Origin: Enterobacteria phage JenK1
Length of the DNA: 60,747 nucleotides
Direction: 5' to 3' (one strand)
Sequence record: NC_029021.1
Below are positions 3,732 through 49,611 of this stretch, in pieces. Numbering within the stretch: position 1 is the first letter of the stretch; every line of letters starts with the position of its first letter. A program made the translations under genes and the position numbers. The notes under the pieces were generated by a model. The model did no database searches and had not been told where the DNA came from. It saw only the letters and a list, made by a program, of their open reading frames with translations.

Positions 3732-3761
3732 AGCGCGGTAGAACGGTCTATCGCGCTTTTT
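3732..3761 (+). terminator. intrinsic terminator after portal gene
   Basis: Stem agcgcggtaga / tctatcgcgct (11 bp, one G-T pair) with acgg tetraloop, then TTTTT. Confidence 0.6.
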
Positions 3762-3789
3762 AGTGGAACGGTCCACAATGGAGAATTTT

Positions 3790-26144: not shown

Positions 26145-28116
26145 AAGCGGCGTATGCGAGTTTTTCCAGCAATTTTTCCGCTTTAGCTATGTACACTTCG
26201 TGGTTGAGATCTGGCGGTAATTGGTCAGTGAGTTCCATCATTGGTTTACCCCCTGCTGTCTTACCAACACGACCTCCACTCTTGACTATTAGTATTTCAG
26301 GTACTTCTTCTTTTGTATAGTACCAGCGAACAACCTTACCTAACGGCTCACTATTCCACGCAGCTCCACCATTAGCTGTCTTGATACAAACAAACTTACG
26401 AATATCCTGACACTCTGTGATAGTTTTGGCAATTGGTGTACCGTCACGAAGCAGATTAACAACTGCATCCATAATGATCTCACCTTCTGCGTTTTTAGCA
26501 AGACCTGTCTCAGCGAACCAACCTTTACGCTTGGCTTTACCATCCGCTTTGATTGCAACGTAGTTGTTAACGTTTGCAGAGTTAAGGCGCAGGTACTGGT
26601 TCAACTCCATTTCAAAGCCAGTTGTCTCTTCCCACCACTTAATGATATCTGTCATTAATTGCTTCTTAGCTTTGCAAGGTTTAATAACAATACCGTCCGT
26701 GTTAGCACTGACGACCTGAATACCGTTAAGCTCCAGTGTTTCAATGAGCATAAGCAAAGCCAACTGGCCTGTCAATGTGGTCTGAATAATAAGGTGCGGT
26801 GCATACAGAATAGAGAACGGTGAACCGAACTTACCATAAGAACCGTTAATAACGATCTTAAGAGTTTGTGCAGTCTTATCGTCATGAGCCATCTTAGCTG
26901 CAATACGTCGTTCTACGATCTTAACAAAGATATCTATAAAGCGCGGGCCCAGGTGCTCAGGATACAGTTGCTGGTTAATGATACAGATTGGGTAGTATGA
27001 CGTTACGTCAGCATCCCACATCTCTTCATCTTCAGATGGTACAATCTCCATTAACTCTTCGCAGGAGTGCAGACCACCGATACCCATGTTGTAGGTTGTC
27101 TGATTGATTGTAAACTTCAAAGAGTTCATTGTAGATGGTTGCTTAATTTTACCATCTTCTGCAACTCGGAAGTAACTATCAAGCACAACCTGAAATACAG
27201 ACTTCATTAGTGGAGTTTGGAAACCTAACCACACTGGAGGATTGTACCTAAAGGTTCTGCCAACTTCCACCATTCCCTTCTGTGGTACGAAGCCCAGCAT
27301 TTCCTTCATTTCGTGACGGATTACAGCTTCTGCAATCTGTGCATCGGATTTAGAGCGAAGGTCCACTTTATACTCTTCACTCATAATCTCACGTAGATGG
27401 ATCTGTTCTTCCAGGGAGTTAAACAGAGCCATTGTTGTATCAAGGTCGTTAATACAGTAGAAGCGCACAATAGCGATCTGTTCTACGGATAACGCCCAAT
27501 GTGGTGGGAATGGTAAGTCCTGGAGCTTCTGCATGTGCATACGGCCACCATACAACTTCAGCGAACCGAAGCCAGGAGCTACCTCTTGAACGTCAATGTG
27601 GTCAATCCAAAACTGTTTTACACCAAAACTGTTAAGAATGTCCCACGGAGCCCACTCTTCCTGGATCATCCTGTCACTTGCTTCTTTCAGCTTGTCAACA
27701 GTTAAACCAGCAATGGCAAGGAATGTCATCGTATTATCGTAGTTTCTTGAGTTGAAACCAACAGTACGAAAGTTCTTCATTATCCATTCATATTTTTCCG
27801 TGTCGAGTGTCTGACCGGCAGTCATTTCTAGATAATAGACCTTACCGAACTTAACCCCTTTAAACGCCACAAGAAAATAGTTCTTGTAACATTCAATATC
27901 GTATACGAACGTTTCTTGCGCAAAATACATCTCCACTAATTCACCGTCTGTCATACGCGGATCATTAGCTGCAAAACGCATTGCTGCATCAAGACCTGGA
28001 AGGTAATCCGGGCGTTCCCATACCCTTTCAACTGGTTGACGTTTTACTTTCTGTTTCTTCTCTTTCTTAGCGGGAGGTAAATCCTCCCAAAAGAAACCAA
28101 TAGCATCTTTTCTCAT
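26143..28116 (-). CDS. DNA polymerase, family B, with 3'-5' exonuclease motifs
   Basis: 657 aa; Exo I YDIE, Exo III YCINDLD, motif A DVTSYYP, motif B KIVINGSYGKFG, motif C NTDG. Confidence 0.8.
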   Translation of the reverse strand: MRKDAIGFFWEDLPPAKKEKKQKVKRQPVERVWERPDYLPGLDAAMRFAANDPRMTDGELVEMYFAQETFVYDIECYKNYFLVAFKGVKFGKVYYLEMTAGQTLDTEKYEWIMKNFRTVGFNSRNYDNTMTFLAIAGLTVDKLKEASDRMIQEEWAPWDILNSFGVKQFWIDHIDVQEVAPGFGSLKLYGGRMHMQKLQDLPFPPHWALSVEQIAIVRFYCINDLDTTMALFNSLEEQIHLREIMSEEYKVDLRSKSDAQIAEAVIRHEMKEMLGFVPQKGMVEVGRTFRYNPPVWLGFQTPLMKSVFQVVLDSYFRVAEDGKIKQPSTMNSLKFTINQTTYNMGIGGLHSCEELMEIVPSEDEEMWDADVTSYYPICIINQQLYPEHLGPRFIDIFVKIVERRIAAKMAHDDKTAQTLKIVINGSYGKFGSPFSILYAPHLIIQTTLTGQLALLMLIETLELNGIQVVSANTDGIVIKPCKAKKQLMTDIIKWWEETTGFEMELNQYLRLNSANVNNYVAIKADGKAKRKGWFAETGLAKNAEGEIIMDAVVNLLRDGTPIAKTITECQDIRKFVCIKTANGGAAWNSEPLGKVVRWYYTKEEVPEILIVKSGGRVGKTAGGKPMMELTDQLPPDLNHEVYIAKAEKLLEKLAYAA

Positions 28117-29105
28117 AGACGAAATCCTACAATTACCCCACGTAGATTTTCACCATAAAAAATAATAGGAGTTGAAAGACCCCTTTCGTCCTTTTCATTG
28201 AAACGCGAGGCATCCCAGTCCGTTGCAAGTCCTTTCAACTGCATAATAAGATCTATATTATACACGCCAATTGACTTGGATTCACGGAACATTGCACTAG
28301 CACCATCCAACTCGTTGTAATGTGTGCGTACAACACCGTTTTCCATGTAAATACGCCCATCCCGCTCACAGAACGGTTTTATCTTTTCTAGGCAATTAAA
28401 AAGCTCAGTATCAAGCGTATAAACGTCGGACCCCTTTTCTGTGCGCTCAATTATCTTATCAATGTTAGGCCACTTTAATTCCAGCAATTGTGTACGCAAC
28501 CAGCAACCGTCTTCGTAGTGAAATGTCATACTGGTATCCGTACATTGAATTCTTACTGGTGGCTTTTTAATACGCAATAATTCTTTGATGGCCATACGTG
28601 GCACAACACAATCTACAGGGAATACAGCACCGAACCAATATTGTATAATACTAGCGTTGTTGGTCGCGTACATGCTGCCCTGTTTTACCAGCACGCCGCA
28701 AGACCACGGGCGGGAAGCATCGTCGCTTATAAATGGCGTTACGCGGCTTAAACCGTTGAGAAAAAGCTGACCGTCTATTTCGTGAATTGTTCCTTCTGGC
28801 TCTACGTGTGCAGTTGGTTTTTGAAGAGTATCCACACTAACCTTAAAGCCACCAGACTTAATGCTCAACTTACCGTTCGCCAACATTGTCATCTGTACAG
28901 CTTCATCACATGCTGCAATAGCTTTCAACATTGGTTCAGCTTTAGGTGTGCAGTCAATATTCAGCGGCACTGGACTACACAATGAAATAGTTCCGTTGAA
29001 CCCGCGCACAGTACCATCAACAATACGGAAGTGAGTTAAACCTTCCTGAAGTTCTTTCTTAGCTACAGAACCCTGAACAAACTTTAAAGCATCAAGTAAA
29101 TCCAT
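28113..29105 (-). CDS. hypothetical protein between DpdA and DNA polymerase
   Basis: 330-aa ORF, translationally coupled to polymerase; no motif recognised. Confidence 0.5.
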   Translation of the reverse strand: MDLLDALKFVQGSVAKKELQEGLTHFRIVDGTVRGFNGTISLCSPVPLNIDCTPKAEPMLKAIAACDEAVQMTMLANGKLSIKSGGFKVSVDTLQKPTAHVEPEGTIHEIDGQLFLNGLSRVTPFISDDASRPWSCGVLVKQGSMYATNNASIIQYWFGAVFPVDCVVPRMAIKELLRIKKPPVRIQCTDTSMTFHYEDGCWLRTQLLELKWPNIDKIIERTEKGSDVYTLDTELFNCLEKIKPFCERDGRIYMENGVVRTHYNELDGASAMFRESKSIGVYNIDLIMQLKGLATDWDASRFNEKDERGLSTPIIFYGENLRGVIVGFRL

Positions 29106-29113: not shown

Positions 29114-30067
29114 TTATTCGTCAAATAAATCCTGGAGACGTTCGTTGAACTTCCCATTGTGGTTAGCAAGAATCATAGCGTTGACCACACCATACGCCCA
29201 TAAATTGTATGCAGCGCGTGATTCGTATATCGTTGAAAGTCGTTCGTATGTGAAACCTGACTCCTCTAAGTAGCGTAGAACGTTATTCTGTTCTATTTCT
29301 GAAAGGTTACAGATATGCTGTCCTTGATAATGGCGTGACGGGGACTTTTCGGATACCTGCATTGGGCCCCACTTAGGAGTTTCAATAGCACCAAACGCCG
29401 CAGATTGAATCCAGGAGGATGAGTCACAGGAGTACCACGGGTAACGCTCCATAAGCGGGCGGGACGTAATACCAAAGCCGTGGACTTTAATCTTAGCGCG
29501 TCCACTACCGTCTACAAGGTGTTTATCCCATACCCTGTCCAGCCATACCTGAAGTTGTTGTGTACTCGCTCCAACAAGACCACCGAGAGTGATATATTCA
29601 TAATTTCGCACATAATGGTCCAGGTATTCAAAAGGTTCACCGGCGTGGAAGCATGGTAAAGGTCTTACACCCCTGGCTTCCATCTCTTCCTGGTTGCGCC
29701 ACGTTTGAAGTGGATCTCCGATACCATCGAGTACAGAAGCCATAAGCGAACCATCTTCTACACGGATGATATCTATGTTTCGTTGGATGTAATCACAGTA
29801 TTCTTTAACCGATAACGTAACTCCCAAAGTGTAGGCTGAGAACGCCCCGGAGTCGAGGAATATCTTGGCCCCATCGGCACGCATGGCATCAACATAGGAT
29901 TGCTTTCCAACGTAGTGCCAGGATTCAAGAATGTTTGGAATATTCTCGACAACGCGTTTTTCTTGCTCGTTGAGTTTGACATAGCGGTTCATTCCTGGTT
30001 TATAGCTGTTCGTATATACGGCAGCCATATAAATCTGAAAGGTATAATCGATATCTTGTCTGTGCAT
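29114..30067 (-). CDS. dpdA: tRNA-guanine transglycosylase-like DNA 7-deazaguanine transglycosylase (DpdA-like)
   Basis: 317 aa; FLDSGAFS motif resembles the TGT DSGGFQ substrate-binding motif and YSCDSSSW resembles the catalytic Asp region; adjacent to the preQ0 pathway genes. Confidence 0.6.
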   Translation of the reverse strand: MHRQDIDYTFQIYMAAVYTNSYKPGMNRYVKLNEQEKRVVENIPNILESWHYVGKQSYVDAMRADGAKIFLDSGAFSAYTLGVTLSVKEYCDYIQRNIDIIRVEDGSLMASVLDGIGDPLQTWRNQEEMEARGVRPLPCFHAGEPFEYLDHYVRNYEYITLGGLVGASTQQLQVWLDRVWDKHLVDGSGRAKIKVHGFGITSRPLMERYPWYSCDSSSWIQSAAFGAIETPKWGPMQVSEKSPSRHYQGQHICNLSEIEQNNVLRYLEESGFTYERLSTIYESRAAYNLWAYGVVNAMILANHNGKFNERLQDLFDE

Positions 30068-30136
30068 TGTTCACCTAACAAATAAGCGCCCGTAGGCGCT
30101 TATTATATTAAAGATAATGTATGATTCGCAAATCAG

Positions 30137-30751
30137 TTACTTTTTACACGCTTCAAGAAATTCCCGACGCCATGTGTCACCAGTTACGTCCGGTAATACA
30201 CCATCGCCCAATGCAGTACGCCCGCGGAATGCCTTAGTGATGGTTGAGCTACCGCATACCTGTTTAATACCGCGCGACTCCATGCACATATGTTTTGCAT
30301 CGATGTAGACGCACACAGCTTTCGGCTCTAAATGGTCACGGATGGCGTCCGCAATCTGGTTAGTTAAACGTTCTTGGACTTGCAAACGTCGAGCGAAAGC
30401 ATCAACTACCCGAGATAACTTGCTGAGACCGACAATTTTTCCATTTGGAACATATCCAACCACCGCATGACCAATAATAGGAGCCATGTGATGCTCACAA
30501 TGACTATATACAGGGATATCGCGAACGATGACCATTTCATCGCAGTCTTCCCCACCATCTTCAAATGTCTTGAACAGGGATGCGATATCGACAGAATAAC
30601 CCCCGAACCACGTCTCAAATGCTTTAGCGACGCGCAATGGAGTTTCAACTAGACCTTCACGCAAGTCATCGCCACCTTCAATCAACTTTAAAATCTTTTC
30701 AATACTGTGCGAAATTTCTGCTCGGTTTGTCATCTTTGTAAATTCATTCAT
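30137..30751 (-). CDS. folE: GTP cyclohydrolase I
   Basis: YSHCEHHMAPIIG signature; ATG at 30751 chosen (track start 30787 is TTG and overlaps QueD). Confidence 0.85.
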   Translation of the reverse strand: MNEFTKMTNRAEISHSIEKILKLIEGGDDLREGLVETPLRVAKAFETWFGGYSVDIASLFKTFEDGGEDCDEMVIVRDIPVYSHCEHHMAPIIGHAVVGYVPNGKIVGLSKLSRVVDAFARRLQVQERLTNQIADAIRDHLEPKAVCVYIDAKHMCMESRGIKQVCGSSTITKAFRGRTALGDGVLPDVTGDTWRREFLEACKK

Positions 30752-30777
30752 GGTTTGCAGTTTCCTTGTGTGGTCAA

Positions 30778-31311
30778 TTATTTGCAATAGTTAACATGGC
30801 ATTTGGACGTTTCTTCAATGGTGCATTCTACCAATTCAACACCATATTGGTCAAGCAGTTGAGGACCAATTACGTCAACCATATATGCAGCTAAGTTTTC
30901 CGCAGTTGGGTTGAATGGTAAAGCTACCAAAGAATCAAAGAACGGATCATAATCTTCATCCGTTACTAAATTGTTCTCACGTGCAAACTTAGTCGATGCG
31001 ACAACAATGAGCGAATTAATTACGCTGTCTTGTTCCCAATGCAGGAACTTATGATCCCAATTATCTTCCAACCACTGGCAAAGCGTAGTTTTAACCACAC
31101 TGAAGTCGATAACGCGACCTACGTCATCCAGCGAACCTTCTAGAGCAAATCCACTTACAGACTTGACGTAACCTTCCGACAATGTTTTCTTCGGGGCAAC
31201 TTTAAAATGGAACTTATAGTTGTGGCCATGCAGGTGACGACATTTACTTTCATGTCCTACGACACGATGCCCAGCGCAAATCTCATGTGAACGAATAACA
31301 GTGTAACCCAT
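30778..31311 (-). CDS. queD: 6-carboxy-5,6,7,8-tetrahydropterin synthase
   Basis: CRHLHGHNY zinc-binding Cx4HGH motif; start at Met 31311 avoids overlap with upstream gene. Confidence 0.8.
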   Translation of the reverse strand: MGYTVIRSHEICAGHRVVGHESKCRHLHGHNYKFHFKVAPKKTLSEGYVKSVSGFALEGSLDDVGRVIDFSVVKTTLCQWLEDNWDHKFLHWEQDSVINSLIVVASTKFARENNLVTDEDYDPFFDSLVALPFNPTAENLAAYMVDVIGPQLLDQYGVELVECTIEETSKCHVNYCK

Positions 31312-31312
31312 T

Positions 31313-32728
31313 TTATTCCTCGCTTTCGTATTTAATAACTTCTTGTGCATTATTAATATTAAACGCAGTCCGACGCATCATGCAAGGGCCACAAGTACCG
31401 CAATGCAAATCCCCGTTACGGTAACAGCTCCAAGTGTGCTCCAACGGGGCCCCTAAACGCAGACCTGTAGCGACAATTTCGTGCTTCATTAAGTTACCTA
31501 CCGGCATGAGCACTTCAACGCGCTTACCGTCCCCTACAGCGAACGGTAACACTTGATTAAAGCGGTTAATAAACTCAGGCTCGTTGTCCGGATAGGCTCC
31601 AGCTTCTTCTAGGTTGTTACCAAGAACAATATAGTCGAAACCGTTAGCTTCTGCGTATGCAGTAGCAACAGAAAGCATTACAAGGTTACGAGCTGGAACC
31701 CATTCATGCGCGAATTCAGCGCCTTCTTCACCGCCAGCAATTGCAGCATCTTGATCAAATAACGGGCTATCTTTTTTATCGTAAATTGGAATTGGGAATT
31801 CAACTAATGGAACTTCCATCACTTCCGCAATCTTACGAATAGCATACAGCTCATTAGTTTCTGCACGACAACCATACTGGAAGTTAATCAGAGTAACATC
31901 TAAACCATTGGACTTACACATTTGAGCTGCTACTGTGCTGTCCATACCGCCACTGGCGACAACTAACGCACGTTGAGTTTGCTTATTTGGAATAAGATCA
32001 ACTTCATTGCACACATCAGTCGATGTGACCACATTACATGAATAAGGCTTCAGCATCTGCTTAATAGCGCGGGTTGGTAGCATGTCTTCCTGGCTGGCGA
32101 AATACATACCAGTATCAGTCTTACCGATCCAGATTGGACGATAATTACATGCTGTAAACACACATCCTGGAAAGGAATCATGTGTTGCAAGGATTGCGAA
32201 GCTACCTTTCAATTTGCGAACAACTTCATGAAACACACTGTACAGGTAATTAAAGTCAGACAAACACATTTCATCTGCTGAAAGTGTACATTCTGCCAAC
32301 TGTTCAACGATCGCAGCACTATCAATCTTAGTCTGTAGGGCATAGGTACGAAGGTCTTTATCGTTCGCAATAGTACCGTTATGAACAATAGTCCAACCAT
32401 CCATATGATACGGTTGCTGGTCCCACTCATTCTTGTCAACGACCCACTCTGTAGTCGGTTCAGCGCGAGCGTTACCAATCATTGTGAAGCTACCAATAGC
32501 TCCAGCATGAGATACAATGCGCCCAACTTTAACAAGACGTTCCAGCGATGTTTTCTTACCGACACTAACAATACGTTGCGGGTGCATACTGTGGTCACCA
32601 TGCGTAAAGCGTACACCAAGACCATCACGACCACGGCTGATACTAGCTTTAATAAGATCCTCAATGTCGTTACGGATAATAAGACTTTCAGGTTGACCGT
32701 TAGTAATAACACCAAAGATAGAGCACAT
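31313..32728 (-). CDS. queC: class-II glutamine amidotransferase fused to QueC-like PP-loop synthetase (Gat-QueC)
   Basis: Start at MCSIFGV (AsnB-type N-terminal Cys nucleophile); SGGMDS PP-loop; C-terminal WSCY...CGTCGPC...R zinc motif typical of QueC. Confidence 0.75.
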   Translation of the reverse strand: MCSIFGVITNGQPESLIIRNDIEDLIKASISRGRDGLGVRFTHGDHSMHPQRIVSVGKKTSLERLVKVGRIVSHAGAIGSFTMIGNARAEPTTEWVVDKNEWDQQPYHMDGWTIVHNGTIANDKDLRTYALQTKIDSAAIVEQLAECTLSADEMCLSDFNYLYSVFHEVVRKLKGSFAILATHDSFPGCVFTACNYRPIWIGKTDTGMYFASQEDMLPTRAIKQMLKPYSCNVVTSTDVCNEVDLIPNKQTQRALVVASGGMDSTVAAQMCKSNGLDVTLINFQYGCRAETNELYAIRKIAEVMEVPLVEFPIPIYDKKDSPLFDQDAAIAGGEEGAEFAHEWVPARNLVMLSVATAYAEANGFDYIVLGNNLEEAGAYPDNEPEFINRFNQVLPFAVGDGKRVEVLMPVGNLMKHEIVATGLRLGAPLEHTWSCYRNGDLHCGTCGPCMMRRTAFNINNAQEVIKYESEE

Positions 32729-32729
32729 A

Positions 32730-33491
32730 TTATTTACCTTCCTTAACCATTTCAATTTCACGCTCAACGGATGCAATAATATCGTTGAGGTCTTCCAGTA
32801 AGTCTTTATGACCGCGCTCACCCGCACACAGCACTTTCTTCAGTGCATGTTGCATGGGCCCACTGGTTACATTGAATGCTTTAATTACGTCGTACACGTC
32901 AACCCATACATCGATTTCGATTGGGCTACCGTTAAGGTCATGGGATTCAAAAGTTTTAATTTTGCGCATATATTTATTTGGACGTGGAGCTTTAATCTCC
33001 TGGATACAACCCTTGTCGATAAACGTTTCTTTAATGAATACTTCCGGATCGCCTTCTTTGTTACGATCAACTTTAAAGACGCTCGTAAGTACATCTTCCA
33101 TGATACTTGTTAATTTATGAGTGGACGTTGTGTGCTTCATGGTATTCGCTTCCGCTTCTTCTGACACTTTCTGACTTCTTCTAGCAGAAGCATTGATACG
33201 CCATTTGTAAAGTGCGTTACGTGGAGGTGTTACATGCGTGTTGTAGACCGTCTTTAAGTTCATAAGATCGTGTCCATCCATAGCTTCAACAAAAACAGTG
33301 AGTGCAGGACTACTATCGTTCAGAACATCCACCAAATATCCTTCCCGAATTACAGATGCAAGAGCTGCATGTGACGCGGCCTGAGAAACTGTGGTTACAT
33401 AATGTTTCACAAATCCGTCTTCATCAAACAGACACTGGTTTAACACATTTTCTGGAACAATTTCACCGAGTAATTGAACGTGCTTATTCAC
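32730..33491 (-). CDS. hypothetical protein embedded in 7-deazaguanine cluster
   Basis: 253-aa ORF between Gat-QueC and QueE, tightly coupled; no motif recognised. Confidence 0.55.
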   Translation of the reverse strand: MNKHVQLLGEIVPENVLNQCLFDEDGFVKHYVTTVSQAASHAALASVIREGYLVDVLNDSSPALTVFVEAMDGHDLMNLKTVYNTHVTPPRNALYKWRINASARRSQKVSEEAEANTMKHTTSTHKLTSIMEDVLTSVFKVDRNKEGDPEVFIKETFIDKGCIQEIKAPRPNKYMRKIKTFESHDLNGSPIEIDVWVDVYDVIKAFNVTSGPMQHALKKVLCAGERGHKDLLEDLNDIIASVEREIEMVKEGK

Positions 33492-33525
33492 AATAATTTA
33501 CCTTATTAGTTGAATATGTATAACT

Positions 33526-34314
33526 TTACTCTACACCTAAATATTTATGAATCTGCAATTGCACGATGTAATTGTGCTTCATTGCATATTTAACGACAGC
33601 TTGAGCGTTTGCTTTATTAGCATCGTCGTCCTGTTCATCCATAGGTTGAAGATAAATCTTACCTTTAAAGTGTACAGGTGGGCGTGCAATAAATGGTGTC
33701 GCACGGTGATCCAGTGCCTGCAACGGTAATCCATCTTCCTCGTTGACGTTTCCGCTTTTCATTACATATTTGAAAGCATCCGCTCGAGCGGAAACGCTAG
33801 GGTGAACCTTTGCTGCCTTAGGACTACATACTACCACACAGTTATAGTTGAGTTCACGCGGGATAGGCATAGTTCCGTTAGTTTCGACCTGTACGCGATA
33901 ACCTTTCATATCAATAAGGTAATTGATAAAATTAGCAACTTCAGGTTGACGGAAAGGTTCGCCGCCAGTAATGACAACTAAGTTAGTCTTGGCTTCACCA
34001 GTAACACGGACAATCTCTTGCCAAATGTCACCGTGGTTCATCTTCTTACGATTGGATGTATAGTTTGTATCACATCCTGGGCATTGCAGATTACAACCAG
34101 CTAATCGAACAAATACGGCAGGTTGACCACAAAATGGGCCTTCGCCTTGAATGGTATGAAAAATGGAATGTACGTCAAGAATACCACGTTCACGAACTAA
34201 CTTCTCAGGTTCCTGAGTATTAATAATTTTCATATGATTTCCAAATTTGGCTTGAGCCCAGTGGTGGGCGATAATGGCTTGTGCAAACATTTGAACCTCG
34301 GGGTAAGATAACAA
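33526..34314 (-). CDS. queE: 7-carboxy-7-deazaguanine synthase (radical SAM)
   Basis: CNLQCPGC radical-SAM Cx3Cx2C-type motif; 262 aa. Confidence 0.85.
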   Translation of the reverse strand: MLSYPEVQMFAQAIIAHHWAQAKFGNHMKIINTQEPEKLVRERGILDVHSIFHTIQGEGPFCGQPAVFVRLAGCNLQCPGCDTNYTSNRKKMNHGDIWQEIVRVTGEAKTNLVVITGGEPFRQPEVANFINYLIDMKGYRVQVETNGTMPIPRELNYNCVVVCSPKAAKVHPSVSARADAFKYVMKSGNVNEEDGLPLQALDHRATPFIARPPVHFKGKIYLQPMDEQDDDANKANAQAVVKYAMKHNYIVQLQIHKYLGVE

Positions 34315-35279: not shown

Positions 35280-36002
35280 TTAATTTAAGCCACGTTCTTT
35301 TACCCAGACCCCTAATGTATTACTTGATGTATTACGCTTCACACCTTGTGCCTCTAAACGATCCATCATTTGTTTTCTAAGCTGTAGGATTTCCTTCTTG
35401 TCACGAGGTTCACCAGCTTCTTTCCACATTTCGTCAGCAACAGCGAAAATAATATCGCGAGTGCCGGCTGTACGCGACGTTGCGGCACGTTTTTCGTTTG
35501 CCGGTGTGCTAGTACCTTGCCGCTCTCTTGTCGGTGTCCATGCCCCTTGTATGCCCATATTTGTTTGTACGGTTGGGCCGTCAATGATGGTGGATTCCAA
35601 TGAACTATCATTCCGTACTTGAATATTAGGCTCCTCCCCCAAATCTGGAACAGAGCTGCCTTCGCGGTACATGCACTCACCCTCTTTATTACTAGCAATT
35701 GCCCAGTCCGCTTGTTCAGCCACATCCGCATCTATTACTGTCTCCGGTATTTCATTTAAAAAGTAATGGATGATCTTACTGATCATTTTCTTTGGATATA
35801 AAGCACCTTGCTTATTACCCGTTAAGTTGATGTACAAAAGCTGCATTTGCACATCATCAAACTCTTTATACAGTTCTTCAACTTCTAACGGAAGAACTAC
35901 AGAACTTTCGCTACAGCATAGAATTCCATACTCATGAAGACGTTGGAAGTTTGGATGTTTGGCTAACACCTGCATCCGATCATAATCAATTAAGACGTAC
36001 AT
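35280..36002 (-). CDS. hypothetical protein
   Basis: 240-aa ORF downstream of helicase. Confidence 0.5.
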   Translation of the reverse strand: MYVLIDYDRMQVLAKHPNFQRLHEYGILCCSESSVVLPLEVEELYKEFDDVQMQLLYINLTGNKQGALYPKKMISKIIHYFLNEIPETVIDADVAEQADWAIASNKEGECMYREGSSVPDLGEEPNIQVRNDSSLESTIIDGPTVQTNMGIQGAWTPTRERQGTSTPANEKRAATSRTAGTRDIIFAVADEMWKEAGEPRDKKEILQLRKQMMDRLEAQGVKRNTSSNTLGVWVKERGLN

Positions 36003-36022
36003 GTTAATCCTTCCAATTAAAA

Positions 36023-38026
36023 TTAAAACGGTATGTCGTCATCAAAATCTGGTGGTAGTTCTTTACCGTTACCAGTAAGAATAGGTTGATTAGACGTAGA
36101 ATGCAATACTGTCGTACGGGAATCAGTCTGCTCATCTTCATCAAACTTATTCGTATAACTTCCACCAAACTGGGACAGACCATTCATTGCTGCAATTTGT
36201 ACAACAGGACGTTCGTTTGTTGCTTCTTTCTTACCGAACTCGCTACCGTCATAACAACTATTCAACACTTCAGGGAACTTACCCTTCAAGTTGACATATA
36301 TGTGCGTCGGTACACGAAGCTGGCTGACCACATTGAGAGCTTCGTCAATGTTAGCTGGGATTGCCAAGCTGCAATGCTCGCGCCACCAGTTACGCGCTTT
36401 CTTGCCCGCAAAGCCAGTATGGAACAGGCAGATATATTGTTGGATAGTCTGTGAGCCACAAAGATAGTCGACACGAAGTGTTGGTGGTTTAGAACGGTCG
36501 CCCCTGTTCTCGTGGCGGTAGTAACTTACCATATCAACTTTCAATACCTCAGTGACCGGTAAATCATTCTTGATAATAGCTTTCGTACTAGCACTCGCCA
36601 TTAGTTTCTTCTCAAAAGTAAACTCATGACCGCAATAACCAGCACGGCACGCTTTATTATTTGTAATGGTATAGCCTAATCCTTGTAGATAGAGTATTTC
36701 TTCATGCGACATGCTACTTGTGTCGAATGGTTTTAACCCACCACAGAATCGAACTGACGCATGGTTCCATGTTTTACATACCGGGCATTCTTTAACAGGT
36801 GCAGCGGACTTTCCTTTCTGCCCTGGGCGCTTAGGAATTACAGGGTCATTAATAGGCCCAAGGCGTCTTGTGTTACCTGCATAGTCCAATACAAGACAGT
36901 TCTGTTTATGCGAAGCGGAGATAGCTTGCAAACGACCCTCTGTTGTGGTCAAATCAAAACCATCTGCATAATCAGGTCGTGTACCACGTCCAAGCATCTG
37001 AACCCACAAACGGGAAGATTGAGATGGTCGCATACCAATTATCAAATCAAGCCCCGGATGGTCAAAGCCTGTCGTTAATACGTTGTTGTTTGCTATTGCC
37101 TGTAAACGACCAGCTTTAAAATCAATAAGATACTGGTCACGCAAGGCTTTCGGTGTATCACCAGTTACAACTTCACAACTAATACCGCGCTCGTTGAGGT
37201 AGTCTTTGACATCTTTTGCATGGTCTACACCAGCACAAAAGACAAGCCAACTCATTCTATTCTCTTCTTCCGCAATACTAATCGCATCATCTAATAAATG
37301 GCGAGTTACATCAGGATCGTTTACAACCTTTTGAAGTTCGCTTTCAATGAACTCACCGCCTCGAGTATGAACACCACTTACGTCATACTCTTTCTTTGTT
37401 TTACGTGGTACTAACGGAACAAGATAACCTTCATCAATGAACCAGTTGAAGCACTCTACGGTACACGCGTTAAATACGATTTCATCAAATAGAGCGTTAG
37501 GCGCATAATCATCTTTGATGATAGAACCAAAACCAAGACGCCAACTCGTAGCAGTAAGACCGATAATCTTTAGATATGGGTTCTTTTCACGAATGTGCGC
37601 AAAGAACTTCTGATAACTTGTTTGCTGATTTGGGCTAATAAGGTCACATTCGTCAACTATAATAATATCAACGTCCTCGAAGTATTTAGCTTGTTTTGCA
37701 ACAGACTGAATACCTGCGAACGTTATCATTGCATTCTTATCCTTGCGACCCATACCAGCACTATAAATACCAGTCGGTGCTTCAGGCCACAACTTCTTAA
37801 ATTTATCGTGGTTCTGGTCTATCAATTCTTTTACGTGAGTAATTACCATCATGCGGGTACTACCCCAATTATCGTGAATTGTCTTTAATAGACCAGCAAT
37901 TACAAGGGACTTACCAGTCCCTGTAGGCAACAAGATAACAGGATTTCCTGACTTTTCACCATACTTGATGAAATAGCGCAATGTACTGTTTACAGCTTCT
38001 TGCTGATAATCACGTAGTTTGAACAT
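36023..38026 (-). CDS. superfamily 2 DNA helicase with SSB-like C-terminal tip
   Basis: Walker A LLPTGTGKS, DECD box, Cys-rich region; extreme C-terminus PPDFDDDIPF matches the E. coli SSB C-terminal tip. Confidence 0.75.
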   Translation of the reverse strand: MFKLRDYQQEAVNSTLRYFIKYGEKSGNPVILLPTGTGKSLVIAGLLKTIHDNWGSTRMMVITHVKELIDQNHDKFKKLWPEAPTGIYSAGMGRKDKNAMITFAGIQSVAKQAKYFEDVDIIIVDECDLISPNQQTSYQKFFAHIREKNPYLKIIGLTATSWRLGFGSIIKDDYAPNALFDEIVFNACTVECFNWFIDEGYLVPLVPRKTKKEYDVSGVHTRGGEFIESELQKVVNDPDVTRHLLDDAISIAEEENRMSWLVFCAGVDHAKDVKDYLNERGISCEVVTGDTPKALRDQYLIDFKAGRLQAIANNNVLTTGFDHPGLDLIIGMRPSQSSRLWVQMLGRGTRPDYADGFDLTTTEGRLQAISASHKQNCLVLDYAGNTRRLGPINDPVIPKRPGQKGKSAAPVKECPVCKTWNHASVRFCGGLKPFDTSSMSHEEILYLQGLGYTITNNKACRAGYCGHEFTFEKKLMASASTKAIIKNDLPVTEVLKVDMVSYYRHENRGDRSKPPTLRVDYLCGSQTIQQYICLFHTGFAGKKARNWWREHCSLAIPANIDEALNVVSQLRVPTHIYVNLKGKFPEVLNSCYDGSEFGKKEATNERPVVQIAAMNGLSQFGGSYTNKFDEDEQTDSRTTVLHSTSNQPILTGNGKELPPDFDDDIPF

Positions 38027-38977
38027 TTACTCACCGTAATAATCTGCTGCTTCGTATTGACCACATGCTGCCATCTGATCTTCCTTCGTTAATACACCTT
38101 CGGTTCCATCTGTGATGTATGCAGTAGCAGAAGCTAATTTTATTGCACATCTCCAGGTTCCATCTTCAAGCGGATAAGAGTGCTTACAGGTGCGGCAGTT
38201 AACTTCAGGCATCTTGTTGTTATGGCACACTGCTTTGTGGTCACACCATTTGCATTTATAGTAGGATTTACTTTCATTGATCTTAGGTGGTGGACATTCT
38301 GCCAGTGCAATTACAAATCCACGGTCTTTGTAGCGTTCCGCGGTTTCTTTATCAAATGGTACAAGCTCTGCCCAAATCTCGTCCGTGTTCTTATTAACTG
38401 CAATATAAAGAGCGGCTGGGAGCCCATAGTACAACATGTACTCCTGCATCTGAACATAGTGCTCCCATTTGGATTCCATCACACCATTAACGACAAGTTT
38501 CTTGAACGAATCGTTATTGTGCGTTTTCATCTCCGTCAAGATTGGTGTAGAAGGTTGTGGCATGTCGGGGCAACCAATGACAATACCATCTATCGCAGAG
38601 CCAAAGTGCCCGTTGAGATAGCTAACTCGATACTGGCTGCCATTTTCGTCTTGTTGGATGACTTGCATACCAGCGGTAAGTAATAAGGCCACGAAGCGGC
38701 CTTCTTCAAGATGCCCGCGATTGAATAGACGTAATGTTTTACCGTTAAAGTGCGGTTTTGTTGCCCATCGCCATCCGTAGAAGATTGCTCTGCTACACTC
38801 TTGCCCGATAAGACTAATCCCAAGATGCGAACGGAATCCGCCATCTCCCTCTCGATATGCGTCTTCAATATGTGGTAATACTTTTCCGAGCCATACTCTG
38901 TAAGCGGATCCTTGATCTCGTTCAATACAGTCATTGAATAACTCCATTGTCTTAGTAGCAGGATAAAAATGTGGCAT
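38027..38977 (-). CDS. PD-(D/E)XK exonuclease (RecB/Cas4-like) with C-terminal Cys cluster
   Basis: Motifs AIDGIV, LTEMK, QMQEY plus multiple C-terminal Cys (CKWCDHKAVC...CRTC). Confidence 0.55.
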   Translation of the reverse strand: MPHFYPATKTMELFNDCIERDQGSAYRVWLGKVLPHIEDAYREGDGGFRSHLGISLIGQECSRAIFYGWRWATKPHFNGKTLRLFNRGHLEEGRFVALLLTAGMQVIQQDENGSQYRVSYLNGHFGSAIDGIVIGCPDMPQPSTPILTEMKTHNNDSFKKLVVNGVMESKWEHYVQMQEYMLYYGLPAALYIAVNKNTDEIWAELVPFDKETAERYKDRGFVIALAECPPPKINESKSYYKCKWCDHKAVCHNNKMPEVNCRTCKHSYPLEDGTWRCAIKLASATAYITDGTEGVLTKEDQMAACGQYEAADYYGE

Positions 38978-39039: not shown

Positions 39040-39963
39040 TTACTGTGCAGCGTCATCGCCTTCAGTGGAACGTTTCCACGGTGGAGTCTTGGTCTGAGCT
39101 GCTTTAGCGATATCGTCCTGGACTTCAGGTTCTGCATGGTTAGCAGTACCAGTGTTCTGAGCCTGAGTTTGCGGTTGCTCTGCTCCAGGTTGTACCTGCT
39201 GAGTTGCCCAGTTAGGTTGCTGTGTGGTTTGTTGCTGCGGCTGCTGCGCACCAGTAGCCCACGGTTGAGATTGCGCCGCACTGTTAAAATCAACTGTTCC
39301 AGACTGCTGCTGTTGCTGTACCGGCTGCTGCGGCTGTTGTTGCTGCTGCGGTTGCTGGAACCCCTGAGTCTGAGGTTGTTGCTGCTGTTGCTGCGGCTGC
39401 TGCCCAAATGCGCCCGGGAAACCCTGCTGCTGCGGTTGCTGCTGTTGTTGCTGAGCACCACCGAACGCACCGCCACCAAATGCTGGAGATTGTGCTGCCG
39501 CTGCCGGAGTTGATTTAGGCAGGTTAGCCATATCCGCCTTAGTTGCGTATACAACACCTTCCATGTTATCAATTGCTTGATAAATCTGAGGTTCGTTGTT
39601 TGGCTCATAGCCAGGTTGTTGACGAACTTTCACTTTCAGGTTAAACGGAATACCGTGCAGTTGTTCAGTATCGTTCCAAACTGGAACTTTAACAGCACGG
39701 GACAGCTCTGCCAGTTCTTCCATTGCAATCTGTACAGCGACAGGGTTCGCGTTCTTGACGTTGTAACCGCCAAACATCACACGACCAGCAAAATCACCCT
39801 GCATAATCTTAAACTGAAGATTCAGACGCGCACCGCCTGGAGTTTTAGTCGGTTTGATTTCAGAGTTTACAATCTGAACAACATACCAACCAGCGGGCAT
39901 CAAGCTGTTGTGTTGACGCTCTGCGTGCTGTCCAGCGTTAAATTGCATTCCTAAACCGGCCAT
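39040..39963 (-). CDS. putative ssDNA-binding / annealing protein with Gln-rich linker
   Basis: Folded N-terminal 150 aa, then roughly 100 aa of poly-Q/P low complexity and acidic C-terminus; adjacent to Sak4-like ATPase. Confidence 0.45.
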   Translation of the reverse strand: MAGLGMQFNAGQHAERQHNSLMPAGWYVVQIVNSEIKPTKTPGGARLNLQFKIMQGDFAGRVMFGGYNVKNANPVAVQIAMEELAELSRAVKVPVWNDTEQLHGIPFNLKVKVRQQPGYEPNNEPQIYQAIDNMEGVVYATKADMANLPKSTPAAAAQSPAFGGGAFGGAQQQQQQPQQQGFPGAFGQQPQQQQQQPQTQGFQQPQQQQQPQQPVQQQQQSGTVDFNSAAQSQPWATGAQQPQQQTTQQPNWATQQVQPGAEQPQTQAQNTGTANHAEPEVQDDIAKAAQTKTPPWKRSTEGDDAAQ

Positions 39964-40709
39964 TATTGTACCCCTTTGATTTTGTTAATGATTGCACCGA
40001 GATGTGGATATTCCATCTGTTCTAACGAACCAGAACGATCTTTACATACATTTGACAGATCTGGTCTGGTCAGCAGATAACGAAAATCTGCTTGAGTATT
40101 TTGGTCTTTACCAACACTAATTTTGAAAACTTCATCAAAAAAGTATGGTAATTCTGGACCTAATTTTGCACCAGGCATAGAAGGACCATAAGACGTAATA
40201 CCTGTTAACTCGTCCTTATTACGGGACATTTTAGCTGCCATGTATACGTTAAGTCCAGGGATATCTCGAAAAGCACGAACTAACGTTTGCATCTTCTCAA
40301 TGAGATCCCCATAAGCCTGACGCGGATCCTTCACAGTGCGCTTCGCATTGTTAAGGCACTTTTCAGCAATCTCAGTAAGTGAATCCAGCGCAAGAGACTG
40401 AAAGCGCGGTAAACCATCTTCACCTACAGGATTGTTTGCAGGGTTAGTCGCCCAAACATAAGCCTGCTCCACATCCTGGATATTTTCAACCGTGATGGTT
40501 GGAATATCGTAACAGATATCTGGTCTGTTTTCACCAAACACACGAGCAATGTTATTCGGTGTTAAAGACAGAAGCCCAGACTCTGCAGAAATCAGCAACG
40601 GTCTTGGAAGGGTTGCTGTAAGCATGGTCTTACCCATACCGGATTCACCATACACAAGCATCTTGACACCAGTGTCCAAAACTGCCTGCGCGGTAGTTGT
40701 AAATTGCAT
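39963..40709 (-). CDS. RecA-like recombination ATPase (Sak4-like)
   Basis: Walker A GESGMGKT, Walker B-like LALDSL; roughly 250 aa; ATGA coupling with neighbour. Confidence 0.5.
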   Translation of the reverse strand: MQFTTTAQAVLDTGVKMLVYGESGMGKTMLTATLPRPLLISAESGLLSLTPNNIARVFGENRPDICYDIPTITVENIQDVEQAYVWATNPANNPVGEDGLPRFQSLALDSLTEIAEKCLNNAKRTVKDPRQAYGDLIEKMQTLVRAFRDIPGLNVYMAAKMSRNKDELTGITSYGPSMPGAKLGPELPYFFDEVFKISVGKDQNTQADFRYLLTRPDLSNVCKDRSGSLEQMEYPHLGAIINKIKGVQ

Positions 40710-47036: not shown

Positions 47037-47064
47037 AATGGGCGCATATAGCGCCCATTTTTTA
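47037..47064. terminator. intrinsic terminator
   Basis: Perfect 9-bp stem aatgggcgc / gcgcccatt, atata loop, TTTTTT on plus strand. Confidence 0.7.
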
Positions 47065-49611
47065 TAACTTAATAACTTCGTTCATTCTCTCAATATCTAC
47101 CAAATAACACTTCATTCTCGGTGGTGTAAACTCTGCGCCGAAGAAATTTGAAAAGTCCATTGGCCTCATCTCGGTAAGAACTTCCATAGACATCAAACCA
47201 TAGATTGTATTGTCTATGACCTGTAGGATGTTGTCATTTCTTGTCTGTTTAAAAGCCTTGAACTGGCGACATACTGTGCATAAATCACTCCTTGTGACAA
47301 TAAATGCGTCCTTAAACATGGGAAACCGTTTATATACACCAGCTTTAACTTCACCATCCAAGAACTTCTTAATGGAGTTCAGCATTATCTTCTCACGACT
47401 TGTACTGTCCGTAGAACCAATCTGCCCACTGTTACGCTTCTCTAAGAAACGCTCGTTACCCTGATCGATAAATGACTCAGCCCAACGATAATGTTCCATG
47501 GTGACAACAGGACGCTCACTGTTATCTGCAACAGCAAGAAGAGAAGCTATACGCAATACCTTCAACGCCTTCCTTGTGTACATCTGACGAATTACTTCGT
47601 CTTGCACCTGCTCACCATCATTGCCGCTGTTCAGGAACTTCGCAACAATATTATCAAGATTATCAAACGCTTCGTGTACCTCTGCTTCCATTTCAACATA
47701 ACATGGAGCAGTCCCTGACATAATACGCACAGCTTGTTTATAGATAGCTCCAATAGTGCGCAGAATTGCTTCTGGATATTCCAGGAGCATACTTTTATTC
47801 ATCAACGGTCGGTTAGCAGTACATTCCCATGCGATAATGCGGGACATGAAACCACTTGACATCATACGGTCATCTACGTTCCCGTAAAATTCATCTGGTG
47901 TCGTTTCACCTGCAAAACTATACGCCTTGACCTTACCGCCAGCAGTCGTATTATCTTTACTAGAGTGCTTTGAACCACCTGAGAAAGCGTAGAAATGCCC
48001 CTTATCATAAAGGGAAAGCATTTCATCCATAATGTCTTTAGCTTTACCGACTTCCATCTTACCGTTACGGAAAAACGCACCGACTTCAGTCTTATAGTTA
48101 ATGGATGAGCCACAGGACATAACTGACGTATCCATTATGACGTCTTTACGCAATGCAGCATCAGACGCATATGTACTTGTATCCAGGACACGTTCAATAC
48201 CAAATATCTGCTGCCCGTCCTGGCCGCCATAATTGGATACTTGAGAAAGAATAGTTTCAATGTTAGAGCGAAACGCTTCTTTACCAATACCAGAACGTGC
48301 AATCAGTACAAAGTAGTTATTCAAACCACTTCGTGTGACTGTGTTCCACGCCTTACCGCACATACCACTAAATAAAGCAAGAGCAGACAGAATACTAATG
48401 TCTTTAATAGGCAACAAGCTCGCTTTATACATATTACGCGCAACCTCGCCCATAAAGCCCGGAGGCCAAGCCAAACCGTCTGCCTGCTCTTCAGTGTAAT
48501 TGCCATCTGTGGTCAACACTTCTTCAGGTGGGCGTTCTGGTGTAGTTGCTTGACGTAGTTTTTCCGTGCGCTCTATAGCTGCATTAACGTTATTCTGAAC
48601 TATCTGCATAAGTCCCATAGATTTGACATGGGCATCATAGCGATAGTTGCGAATCATTCTATCCAGGTGATACGGGCGTTTGATTTTTTCACCAGGCAGA
48701 CGACGGGAATCATCGTAACGACTACTCATTGGTGAATACATGAACAAACGTCTTACCTGGAAATTGTACTTACTCTTAAAGCAAAGAAAGTCAATTAATG
48801 CAAACTCTGCTTCGGACTGAGAAGGGAAACAACGTTCACCGATAGAAGTATCAACTTCTTCAGCTCTCCAACGACCTTCCCATAGTTGCTTAAACAATGT
48901 TCCGTTTTCTTGTTCACACAACTGAATATAGACATCCTGGTCTTCCATTGCATATGGGTCGTTACTAAAATCTTCTTCAGTAAGTTCCAGCATTTGGAAG
49001 CCATCAGACTCATTAATCTCACTCATCTCAGACATAAGTTGATGAATGAGATTAGCGATATACCCTTCGCTTTCACTGCCTGGAGCACCAGACACAGTAC
49101 GCGGAGTAATATCCCAGTGATCTCCTGTACAGATAATAAAGCGATACTGTGAATACACTTCCACACCATCGCGGCGCTTACCAGCCTGAGGTATGGAATA
49201 AATCCATGTGTGCAACCCATCACCACTTCTGGAAATTTCCGTATAGCTATGGAACGATTCAACAATCTTCTTATATCGCTCACCAGCAACTTTCTTTTCC
49301 ATTTCAGACATGGTATCTTTAATGTCCATGTCTATACAACAGAACGGGTCACTTGGAAGTAGATAGAAACCTAAACGCAAGTTATGGCCGATCTCGTTAT
49401 AATAACGAACGCAGCGTTCAGCATCTTCAAAAGACATAAGTAAATGCAGGTTAGACGGTTTCTTATCATTGCCGTCTTTACGAAGTGGGACCATATCCCC
49501 TAAATCATCGTCCCATACATAAGGTTGTTTTTCTGATGATGTACCTGGATGGAAACCGCAGACAGCCCACTGTTCGTATTGTTTAATTTCTTGAGGAAAA
49601 AGTTCCAGCAT
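47062..49611 (-). CDS. DNA primase-polymerase (archaeo-eukaryotic primase-like) replication protein
   Basis: 849 aa; N-terminal AEP-like motifs CIDMDIKD (DxD) and SGDGLHTWIY (sGxGxH); large C-terminal domain unassigned. Confidence 0.55.
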   Translation of the reverse strand: MLELFPQEIKQYEQWAVCGFHPGTSSEKQPYVWDDDLGDMVPLRKDGNDKKPSNLHLLMSFEDAERCVRYYNEIGHNLRLGFYLLPSDPFCCIDMDIKDTMSEMEKKVAGERYKKIVESFHSYTEISRSGDGLHTWIYSIPQAGKRRDGVEVYSQYRFIICTGDHWDITPRTVSGAPGSESEGYIANLIHQLMSEMSEINESDGFQMLELTEEDFSNDPYAMEDQDVYIQLCEQENGTLFKQLWEGRWRAEEVDTSIGERCFPSQSEAEFALIDFLCFKSKYNFQVRRLFMYSPMSSRYDDSRRLPGEKIKRPYHLDRMIRNYRYDAHVKSMGLMQIVQNNVNAAIERTEKLRQATTPERPPEEVLTTDGNYTEEQADGLAWPPGFMGEVARNMYKASLLPIKDISILSALALFSGMCGKAWNTVTRSGLNNYFVLIARSGIGKEAFRSNIETILSQVSNYGGQDGQQIFGIERVLDTSTYASDAALRKDVIMDTSVMSCGSSINYKTEVGAFFRNGKMEVGKAKDIMDEMLSLYDKGHFYAFSGGSKHSSKDNTTAGGKVKAYSFAGETTPDEFYGNVDDRMMSSGFMSRIIAWECTANRPLMNKSMLLEYPEAILRTIGAIYKQAVRIMSGTAPCYVEMEAEVHEAFDNLDNIVAKFLNSGNDGEQVQDEVIRQMYTRKALKVLRIASLLAVADNSERPVVTMEHYRWAESFIDQGNERFLEKRNSGQIGSTDSTSREKIMLNSIKKFLDGEVKAGVYKRFPMFKDAFIVTRSDLCTVCRQFKAFKQTRNDNILQVIDNTIYGLMSMEVLTEMRPMDFSNFFGAEFTPPRMKCYLVDIERMNEVIKL

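Follow-up and report, generated by a model that had tools for sequence, protein, structure and literature searches.

In bacterial genome maintenance, the C-terminal tip of SSB (SSB-Ct) is the central signal for recruitment, one usually credited to SSB itself. The tip recruits at least 17 host proteins via pockets (PMC7145534; PMC10238739), and the bacterial SSB hexapeptide is DDDIPF (PMC5872125). One of the proteins that bind it is E. coli RadD, which takes up the SSB-Ct peptide with a Kd of 5.4 uM and whose ATPase is raised about 3-fold, in a DNA-independent way, by SSB or by this peptide on its own (PMC10238739). As a recombination accessory, RadD speeds RecA strand exchange (PMC8887467).

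Tails of a comparable kind have been described in phages. In T7, the tail of the gp4 helicase (peptide DTDF) and the tail of the gp2.5 SSB are placed at one common site of the phage polymerase (PDB 6P7E, as used in PMC12339929). The DUF669 protein of HK620 is a true SSB, and the binding of Sak4 to SSB-coated DNA requires the last six residues of that SSB, NDYPPF (PMC5928155). A phage helicase close to the one described below, Heli22 of Seuratvirus (658 aa, Bas22), activates Retron-Eco11, as do T4 UvsW and T5 D10 (PMC12746101); that paper does not mention RadD, and SSB appears in it only in unrelated contexts. An earlier description of an SSB-type tip on a phage helicase or a phage sliding clamp was not found in the literature. 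New here are the RadD homology of such a helicase, the module formed by Sak4, the DUF669 SSB, the Cas4-domain exonuclease and the helicase, and the presence of the tip on the Septimatrevirus clamp.

The helicase gene lies on the minus strand of the window, i.e., the whole stretch of 60,747 nucleotides of Enterobacteria phage JenK1 (NC_029021.1) that was analysed. JenK1 is a Nonagvirus, a 9g/JenP1-like coliphage. The ORF matches phrog_16, a DNA helicase family in PHROGs, and is built up as follows:

36023..38026, minus strand: RadD-like SF2 ATPase/helicase ORF, 667 aa, ATG start (stop codon included)
37547..38023, minus strand: RecA-like motor domain 1, aa 2-160 (Pfam ResIII/DEAD)
36977..37288, minus strand: RecA-like motor domain 2, aa 247-350 (Pfam Helicase_C, 1.5e-12)
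36632..36787, minus strand: Cys-rich, zinc-ribbon-like region, aa 414-465 (alignment, AF2)
36173..36559, minus strand: folded C-terminal domain, aa ~490-618 (AF2 pLDDT about 90 up to residue 618)
36050..36172, minus strand: disordered linker, aa 619-659 (AF2 pLDDT <50 for 619-667)
36026..36049, minus strand: SSB-Ct-type tip DFDDDIPF, aa 660-667, free C-terminus (sequence reading)

Motor domain 1 carries a Walker A (PTGTGKS) and a Walker B motif (VDEC), with G36, T37, G38, K39, S40, D125 and E126 invariant in the family alignment. In the same alignment C414, C417 and C428 of the Cys-rich region are invariant and C465 is nearly so; AF2 gives small beta elements for this region, and the RadD alignment extends to its CPxC. 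Read on the minus strand, the stop codon TAA occupies 36023-36025 and PPDFDDDIPF occupies 36026-36055. The protein ends ...KELPPDFDDDIPF, with the terminal F667 directly before the TAA.

An earlier note on this DNA had called the helicase end an exact SSB tip. This is accurate for DFDDDIPF and too generous for all ten residues: E. coli K-12 SSB ends NEPPMDFDDDIPF, and alignment of the C-termini, the check that had been named, gives 8/8 identical last residues, preceded by PP in the helicase and PM in SSB, with P at -10 and E at -12 matching too. The tip has the SSB-Ct pattern (a terminal Phe with Pro next to it at -2, position -3 aliphatic and an acidic stretch from -4 to -8), and D[DE][DE][ILVM]PF occurs a single time in the six-frame translation of the whole window, at the helicase end. 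From the amino-acid frequencies in the ORFs of the window, the chance of DFDDDIPF at a given C-terminus was estimated at 2.8e-11, with 2e-9 occurrences expected over the 73 ORFs of at least 100 aa. A Klebsiella-phage relative has all of the last 10 residues of E. coli SSB (10/10, PMDFDDDIPF). At the nucleotide level the last codons of the JenK1 gene are identical to E. coli ssb at 20/27 nt, and the Klebsiella-phage gene over its last 10 codons at 26/30 nt, stretches that are too short to decide on a recent capture from ssb. The other IMG/VR proteins that end in DFDDDIPF have no Pfam match, and PHROGs assigns part of them to SSB families and part to families without a known function. Neither Pfam nor PHROGs nor NCBIfam gave an SSB domain for the helicase itself; its fold is that of RadD, and the tail alone is common to it and SSB.

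The protein had also been described as an SF2 helicase. This is correct, but the assignment can be made more precise: the phage helicase is a full-length homologue of the RadD family, i.e., of a family that reads the SSB tip. Its best PDB match (phmmer) is E. coli RadD with 3.7e-64, and the top 8 Foldseek matches are all RadD (E 9e-35 to 2e-32, ~640 columns, TM 0.44-0.53), followed by the next family at 7e-15; the folded C-terminal domain (aa ~490-618) falls within this alignment. Against the NCBIfam RadD model NF053632, an equivalog model on which E. coli RadD itself scores 1030, the helicase reaches 292 bits over profile positions 1-389 of 573 only, below the cut-off of 720, and is therefore taken as a RadD homologue and not an orthologue. 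The SSB-tip pocket of E. coli RadD maps to motor domain 1, where it is framed by R21, R49 and R145. Its hydrophobic residues are kept in the phage family (F20 as F in 132/132 of the close set, L44 as F/L, L113 as L/I and L147 as I/V), and R145 corresponds to K153 of the phage helicase (K/R in 131/132 of the close set). The equivalents of R21 and R49 are mostly non-basic, with both positions at alignment indels, and the pocket does not differ between tip-bearing and tail-less members of the family. Heli22 is the Seuratvirus orthologue (by genus), about 54% identical to the JenK1 helicase. It is only 12.8-14.0% identical to UvsW and D10, and its triggering of Retron-Eco11 in the same way as these two suggests a UvsW-like branch processing.

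The genes that surround the helicase, or that bear on its function, are these:

38027..38977, minus strand: Cas4-domain (PD-(D/E)xK) exonuclease, immediately upstream of the helicase (phrog_1990, 1e-114)
39040..39963, minus strand: DUF669-type phage SSB with a Q-rich tail (Pfam DUF669; phrog_6015 SSB, 1.8e-99)
39963..40709, minus strand: Sak4-like RecA-core ATPase, single-strand annealing protein (Pfam AAA_24, 6.8e-23; JenP1 annotation)
28113..29105, minus strand: DnaN-like sliding clamp, tip-less, ending ...IVGFRL (weak TIGR00663 match; JenP1 annotation)
47062-49611: AEP-primase/DUF3987 protein, which holds the replicative helicase

Sak4, the DUF669 SSB and the exonuclease adjoin the helicase gene in all related phage loci examined, and the RadD-like ORF is best explained as a branch-processing or recombination accessory motor, not as the replicative helicase. 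The DUF669 SSB of JenK1 ends ...PPWKRSTEGDDAAQ; it has a PPW motif at aa 294-296 (nt 39076-39084) and no acidic tip, and this SSB is without an acidic tip in 11/11 phages compared. The annotation of the near-identical JenP1 genome lists no clamp loader. In the Septimatrevirus phages QH3 and PaMx42, the arrangement of the tip is different: the helicases are tail-less, and the clamps are extended by a linker that ends in NEDDIPF or YSDDIPF. The tail-less helicase of QH3 is found in the same Sak4/DUF669/exonuclease module.

That the tip represents mimicry rather than chance, as the earlier note had proposed, is strongly supported by the relatives of the helicase, given the 2e-9 expected by chance. 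Among the 120 closest database homologues (44-99% identity), 117 end in an acidic run followed by [I/V]-P-F, and the consensus of their aligned ends is DDDIPF, equal to the bacterial SSB hexapeptide. In the tip logo (n=117), P is found in 117/117, F in 116/117 and I/V in 115/117, with D in 100/117 at -5 and in 94/117 at -4. The linker is not conserved: after the C.DGS.F motif it measures 16-113 aa in the homologues, with <1 bit of information upstream of -8. In both family members modelled with AF2, the window protein and P0100, the tail has a pLDDT <50. The tail is kept in 16/16 Nonagvirus records; its apparent truncation in ESCO3 is an artefact of a run of N and a frameshift in the deposited sequence, which still encodes it. 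An additional gene of 88 aa begins within the tail-coding codons in JenP1 and most relatives, and since this gene is absent from the window, where the tail is unchanged, the overlap does not account for the conservation. Purifying selection on the tip across a large helicase clade, with a linker that drifts freely, is strongly supported by these alignments, and the keeping of the tail across so large a group of phage helicases argues for a selected docking signal and against chance.

Farther out, the tip is found on 28 of the best 150 representatives of 50%-identity clusters, and distant relatives are mostly tail-less. On an NJ tree, with RadD as the outgroup without a tip, the Fitch minimum is 19 changes; judged from this tree, gains or losses of the tip appear to have been numerous. 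The Seuratvirus tail has diverged to VEDPDYVPF in phages of the same host, E. coli K-12, and other relatives end in APW or GYF. Such diverged tails on one host imply that a strict match to the host is not needed, and a phage-encoded receptor would fit them equally well. In many relatives, and in some entire genera, Rosemountvirus among them, neither helicase nor clamp has the tip, and its function is thus dispensable in other genomic backgrounds. Tip-bearing members belong to proteobacterial phages. No tail is present on the homologues examined from phages of Gram-positive hosts (Sabella, Evaa, Bassarid, Javan17 and Mischief19), and the alignments of the alphaproteobacterial phage homologues stop near residue 590, which suggests that these are tail-less too. 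A tblastn search with representatives ending in DDEIPF and DDDLPF gave no close cultured relatives.

Docking onto the host partners of SSB is the most plausible function of this tail. Tentatively, and with somewhat less than even confidence, the tip is read here as a portable docking motif of the SSB type through which the helicase would engage pockets that evolved to take host SSB. It would enter the basic-rimmed hydrophobic pockets that are shaped for the host SSB C-terminus, with those of Pol III chi (clamp loader), PriA, DnaG, RecQ, RecG, RecO, ExoI and RNase HI as candidates, and host factors would in this way be recruited by the helicase to its branched DNA substrates, or the helicase would be recruited to the factors. 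As the phage SSB is without an acidic tip, it is proposed that DNA coated with it cannot act as a hub; the helicase, or the clamp in Septimatrevirus, would supply the missing hub signal. The presence of a clamp together with the lack of an annotated clamp loader makes chi the first guess for the host partner. The tip consensus has not drifted, unlike the phage-internal motifs NDYPPF of HK620 and PPW of the DUF669 SSB. In its most extended form, which is speculative and unlikely to hold as a whole, the proposal would be that the SSB tip serves as a hub plug that can be moved between proteins in those phage replisomes that have a tip-less DUF669 SSB and a clamp and no clamp loader. These replisomes would regain the host SSB interactome (most plausibly chi) through the helicase or the Septimatrevirus clamp, and the tail may in addition self-activate the RadD-like motor.

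The receptor of the tip could also be the helicase itself, if the tip were bound by its own RadD-type pocket, in cis or between molecules. The outcome would be a constitutive ATPase or oligomerisation and independence from host SSB; in Septimatrevirus the tip would reach the helicase in trans, from the clamp, and link the two proteins. In favour of this, RadD binds SSB-Ct and is stimulated in its ATPase by it (PMC10238739), the phage protein is homologous to RadD over its full length, the pocket hydrophobics and one basic residue are kept, and the phage SSB has no activating tip. However, R21 and R49, two of three Arg residues that are each essential in RadD, are non-basic in most members (with indels there), the pocket is the same in tip-bearing and tail-less members, and AF2 leaves the tails undocked, with a pLDDT of ~31 in the window protein and ~40 in P0100 (linker of ~8 residues), these monomer models being a weak argument. 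Such self-recognition is judged unlikely. Docking inside the phage machinery in the manner of T7 is doubtful as well. Here the tip would bind a phage protein, with the family-B-like polymerase, the clamp, the Sak4-like annealase and the DUF669 SSB as candidates, and would couple the helicase to the phage machinery. The sharing of one polymerase site by the gp4 and gp2.5 tails of T7 and the need of HK620 Sak4 for NDYPPF speak for this, as do the helicase gene always lying beside Sak4, DUF669 and the exonuclease (loci examined) and the different tails in phages of one host. On the other side, the family consensus is the bacterial SSB consensus across very diverse phages, the PPW motif of the module's own SSB is the likelier Sak4 handle, and QH3 has a tail-less helicase in the same module.

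A host cell contains thousands of SSB tails. Were the helicase tail a decoy that titrates ExoI, RecJ and RecQ from host SSB, and thereby shields phage DNA or stops host repair, it would have to outnumber these abundant host tails with one tail per enzyme molecule, and small dedicated decoy proteins would be cheaper. An exposed DDDIPF C-terminus should bind such proteins, as inferred from PMC10238739, but the placement of the tip on a helicase or on the Septimatrevirus clamp suggests recruitment or localisation rather than titration, and a decoy function is improbable. Competition with host SSB of this kind, which the earlier note had offered beside docking, is the least likely variant. It is scarcely credible that the tail is a functionless leftover, whether a 3' end recently taken over from an ssb gene or a product of chance. 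Many phage SSB-like genes with such an ending are available as donors, and the Klebsiella-phage gene shares its 26/30 nt with E. coli ssb. Yet the JenK1 codons differ synonymously from ssb (20/27 nt), the chance expectation is 2e-9, and the tip is kept in 117/120 homologues down to 44% identity with the linker scrambled; this conservation pattern effectively refutes a neutral leftover.

A conserved and repeatedly acquired tip on an enzyme that is not an SSB, and on the clamp in another genus, would mean that to phages the tip is an address label that can be passed from protein to protein. Its carrier is related to RadD, the one helicase-like family with an ATPase that is allosterically activated by this very tip; if self-activation were true, the enzyme would carry its own allosteric ligand, which would bear on the regulation of RadD. 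The tail would also help to show how host factors are used by phages whose replisome is incomplete (clamp present, loader absent), and it belongs to a helicase family already shown to trigger retron defence.

In comparison with known systems, the tail (linker plus tip) resembles that of bacterial SSB, in which MDFDDDIPF likewise follows a disordered linker, of 56 aa in E. coli SSB (PMC7145534) and of about 40 aa in the helicase. The OB fold, the tetramer and the ssDNA coating of bacterial SSB are all missing from the helicase, and its linker is not rich in Gly, Gln or Pro, unlike the SSB linker. E. coli RadD (YejH; PDB 6JDE, 7R7J, 8H5Y) shares with the phage protein both RecA-like domains, the Cys-rich zinc region and the C-terminal domain; however, it ends ...RLAHELRG without an SSB-like tail, i.e., RadD reads the tip and the phage helicase carries it. 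RadD works with RecA, and the phage helicase adjoins the RecA-core paralogue Sak4. The T7 system offers a parallel in that helicase and SSB both end in an acidic, Phe-terminated tail with a shared docking site (PMC12339929). T7 gp4 belongs to SF4 and is a hexameric replicative helicase; its tail copies the phage SSB and binds the phage polymerase, whereas the JenK1 protein is an SF2 RadD-like helicase whose tail copies the host SSB, with a different motif on the phage SSB. HK620 has the same module of Sak4 and DUF669 SSB, in which a C-terminal SSB-like motif recruits a partner; there the motif is on the SSB, whereas in JenK1 the acidic tip is on the helicase and the DUF669 SSB has an internal PPW.

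The 3-kb stretch around the helicase tail is 95-97.5% identical to 16 Nonagvirus records on sequence comparison, and the window belongs to a 9g/JenP1-like Nonagvirus (Queuovirinae). An earlier note had claimed that its 667-aa SF2 helicase ends in the C-terminal tip of bacterial SSB (SSB-Ct), the peptide on which partner proteins dock:

36023-38026, minus strand: RadD-like helicase ORF, 667 aa, C-terminus ...NGKELPPDFDDDIPF, stop codon TAA at 36023-36025

The C-terminus of E. coli K-12 SSB reads ...SNEPPMDFDDDIPF, and therefore the final eight residues of the two proteins are identical, with P(-10) and E(-12) matching too; the alignment to SSB bore the claim out. No second SSB-type ending was found in any other ORF in all frames of the window, and, given the window's amino-acid composition, about 2e-9 such endings would arise by chance among the 73 ORFs that are 100 aa or longer.

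Homologues at E <= 1e-10 numbered 7914 in a search of 5.8 billion proteins, and in 117 of the 120 best (44-99% identical) an acidic run is followed by [I/V]-P-F at the C-terminus. This retention, together with the chance expectation, upholds the earlier reading of the tail as mimicry and not coincidence. The consensus C-terminus of a 72-sequence alignment is DDDIPF, with P666 and F667 nearly invariant, and the right-aligned tail logo (n = 117) has P in 117/117, F in 116/117, I in 95 or V in 20, and, at the acidic positions, D in 94, D in 100 and D/E in 88, with less than 1 bit of information upstream beyond -8. From the last conserved core motif (C.DGS.F) to the C-terminus, homologues have 16 to 113 residues, and in the AlphaFold2 (AF2) model of the window helicase the core (aa 1-618) is confidently predicted, at pLDDT about 90, and the tail (aa 619-667) stays below 50. 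Conservation, a variable segment and a low-pLDDT tail are typical of a short linear motif tethered through a disordered segment, and the SSB tail is built in the same way; the helicase tail is selected, not accidental. An 88-aa gene (JenP1 gp41; JenP1 35885-36121) separates the helicase from the next gene in most Nonagvirus genomes, its start overlapping the tail codons, but it is missing from the window (36015-36025) and the tail is unchanged, so that this overlap was ruled out as the cause of the conservation. The genomes of 9g and ChristophMerian, which match the query as one query-length piece, also appear to be without this gene. A seemingly tail-less record, ESCO3 (OM386652.1, helicase CDS 401-2359), was rejected as such: a stretch of N together with an indel or frameshift in the linker region makes the annotated helicase end early in the wrong frame, and a different frame codes for the true tail, PPDFDDDIPF.

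Beyond these close relatives the tip is patchy. When 1.84 billion cluster representatives were searched exhaustively, only 28 of the best 150 (38-52% identical) had the canonical tip, and a further 112 ended with the core, ...RVWVNKKYPEIL..EF. A rough, approximate neighbor-joining tree of 193 sequences, rooted on RadD, has one large, almost all-tip clade that includes the window helicase and about 15 scattered tip-bearing lineages; parsimony on it requires at least 19 changes of tip state from a root state of "no tip". Despite the approximate tree, the sequences clearly point to repeated gain or loss. Among the homologues, P0032 has 995 aa and several of P0124-P0270 reach 800-1580 aa; one homologue carries intein/homing-endonuclease domains (PF05204, PF05203, PF14528), several representatives have N-terminal extensions of ~340-380 aa, and some of these long forms also terminate in the SSB tip. 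The Septimatrevirus phages QH3 and PaMx42 have a tail-less helicase, and next to it the DnaN-like clamp (phrog_947) bears an extension of about 40 residues that closes with NEDDIPF or YSDDIPF:

7640-8788, plus strand, Stenotrophomonas phage QH3 (locus L013): clamp with tip-bearing extension
3240-4379, plus strand, Pseudomonas phage PaMx42 (locus L149): clamp with tip-bearing extension
28113-29105, minus strand, window: DnaN-like clamp ending at the core, without extension

The IMG/VR ORFs ending in DFDDDIPF include, among the matches listed, at least 59 canonical SSBs, at least two helicases of the window family and at least 57 other, mostly small proteins, the sampled ones belonging to further SSB families and to families of unknown function. 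The exact tip occurs on the SSB families phrog_743 and phrog_44 (PHROGs, sampled IMG/VR ORFs, loci L023-L142) and on phrog_862, phrog_2544 and phrog_4477 (unknown function, 219-415 aa; sampled IMG/VR ORFs). Phage genomes thus use the tip as a portable module, found on SSBs, helicases, clamps and other proteins.

The carrier itself is recognized by Pfam only as a generic SF2 motor. Its best sequence match among solved structures is E. coli RadD (3.7e-64, aa 2-417), by 50 orders of magnitude; Foldseek with the AF2 model gives RadD at 9e-35 over about 640 columns and the next family at 7e-15. The RadD model is also the top NCBIfam match, at 292 bits against an equivalog cut-off of 720 and over the motor region only, and by these comparisons the protein is a homologue of RadD, not an orthologue. 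The importance of this kinship is that RadD reads the SSB tip: a pocket on its motor domain 1, bordered by R21, R49 and R145, takes up the SSB-Ct peptide (Kd 5.4 uM), and SSB or the peptide alone stimulates the RadD ATPase about 3-fold, independently of DNA (PMC10238739). E. coli RadD has no SSB-like tail, so that the phage protein, kin to a reader, itself bears the signal that it would read.

The helicase is the final gene of a block whose order is the same in CAjan, K9PH25C2, Iggy, QH3, 20Sep420, EC151, PSTCR4 and yong3:

39963-40709: Sak4-like ATPase, first gene
39040-39963, minus strand: DUF669 protein (SSB-type), second gene
39076-39084, minus strand: PPW motif in the DUF669 SSB gene
38027-38977: Cas4-domain exonuclease, third gene

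In the window and ten related phages the DUF669 protein lacks an acidic tip and has instead a conserved near-terminal PPW/APW motif, placed after a Q/P/A-rich tail with 2-11 residues still to come. The HK620 DUF669 protein is a bona fide SSB whose last six residues, NDYPPF, are needed for stimulation of Sak4 annealing (PMC5928155), and by this analogy PPW is probably the Sak4-docking motif of the module. The phage also codes for a polymerase with weak family-B similarity, the clamp and an AEP-primase/DUF3987 protein, likely the replicative primase-helicase; no clamp loader is among the annotated genes of JenP1. Directly downstream of the helicase module (29114-34290, minus strand) lies a 7-deazaguanine DNA-modification set (DpdA-like transglycosylase, FolE, QueD, glutamine-amidotransferase-QueC fusion, QueE), already known as typical of Queuovirinae.

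That the tail is a functional SSB-Ct-type docking motif is firm; a neutral remnant is scarcely credible, and a decoy role very improbable. As to what it binds, the earlier note had proposed docking onto host SSB partners or competition with host SSB for them, and these candidate receptors are plausible; with a RadD homologue as the carrier, a further mechanism comes into view, in which the tip would dock in the helicase's own RadD-type pocket. RadD biochemistry and the conserved pocket residues F19, L46, I121, I155 and K153 speak for such self-binding; yet mostly non-basic residues stand at the positions of R21 and R49, where the alignment has indels, the pocket is the same in tip-bearing and tail-less members, and the tail stays undocked in the AF2 models of two members, making self-binding unlikely. 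Docking on a phage protein has its precedent in T7, where the gp4 and gp2.5 tails use one site on the polymerase (PMC12339929), and is about as doubtful as self-binding.

We favour host SSB-interacting proteins as the receptor, with slightly less than even confidence. Across very diverse phages the family consensus keeps to the bacterial one, and in enterobacterial phages the match covers 8-10 residues of host-specific SSB sequence, whereas motifs for phage-internal contacts (NDYPPF, PPW) have drifted from it; a tip that sits on either helicase or clamp speaks for a role in the machine as a whole more than for control of a single enzyme, and the phage's own SSB cannot give a hub signal. Against a host partner count Seuratvirus, which infects the same K-12 host but has diverged in its tail (VEDPDYVPF), and the lack of any tip in some related genera. 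Speculatively, the chi subunit of the host clamp loader, which binds SSB-Ct (PMC3045619), would be an attractive partner, because the phage has a clamp but no loader.

Literature searches found no description of a canonical host-type SSB-Ct conserved on a phage RadD-like helicase clade, or of one borne by a phage clamp instead. Already known are SSB-Ct, RadD and helicase tails imitating an SSB tail, as in T7. The Seuratvirus orthologue Heli22 (Bas22) triggers Retron-Eco11, like T4 UvsW and T5 D10, in a study that does not mention RadD and treats SSB in unrelated contexts only (PMC12746101); the uvsW3' cloning primer in the same study implies that T4 UvsW ends in ...DEVEESF, another acidic, Phe-terminated helicase tail.
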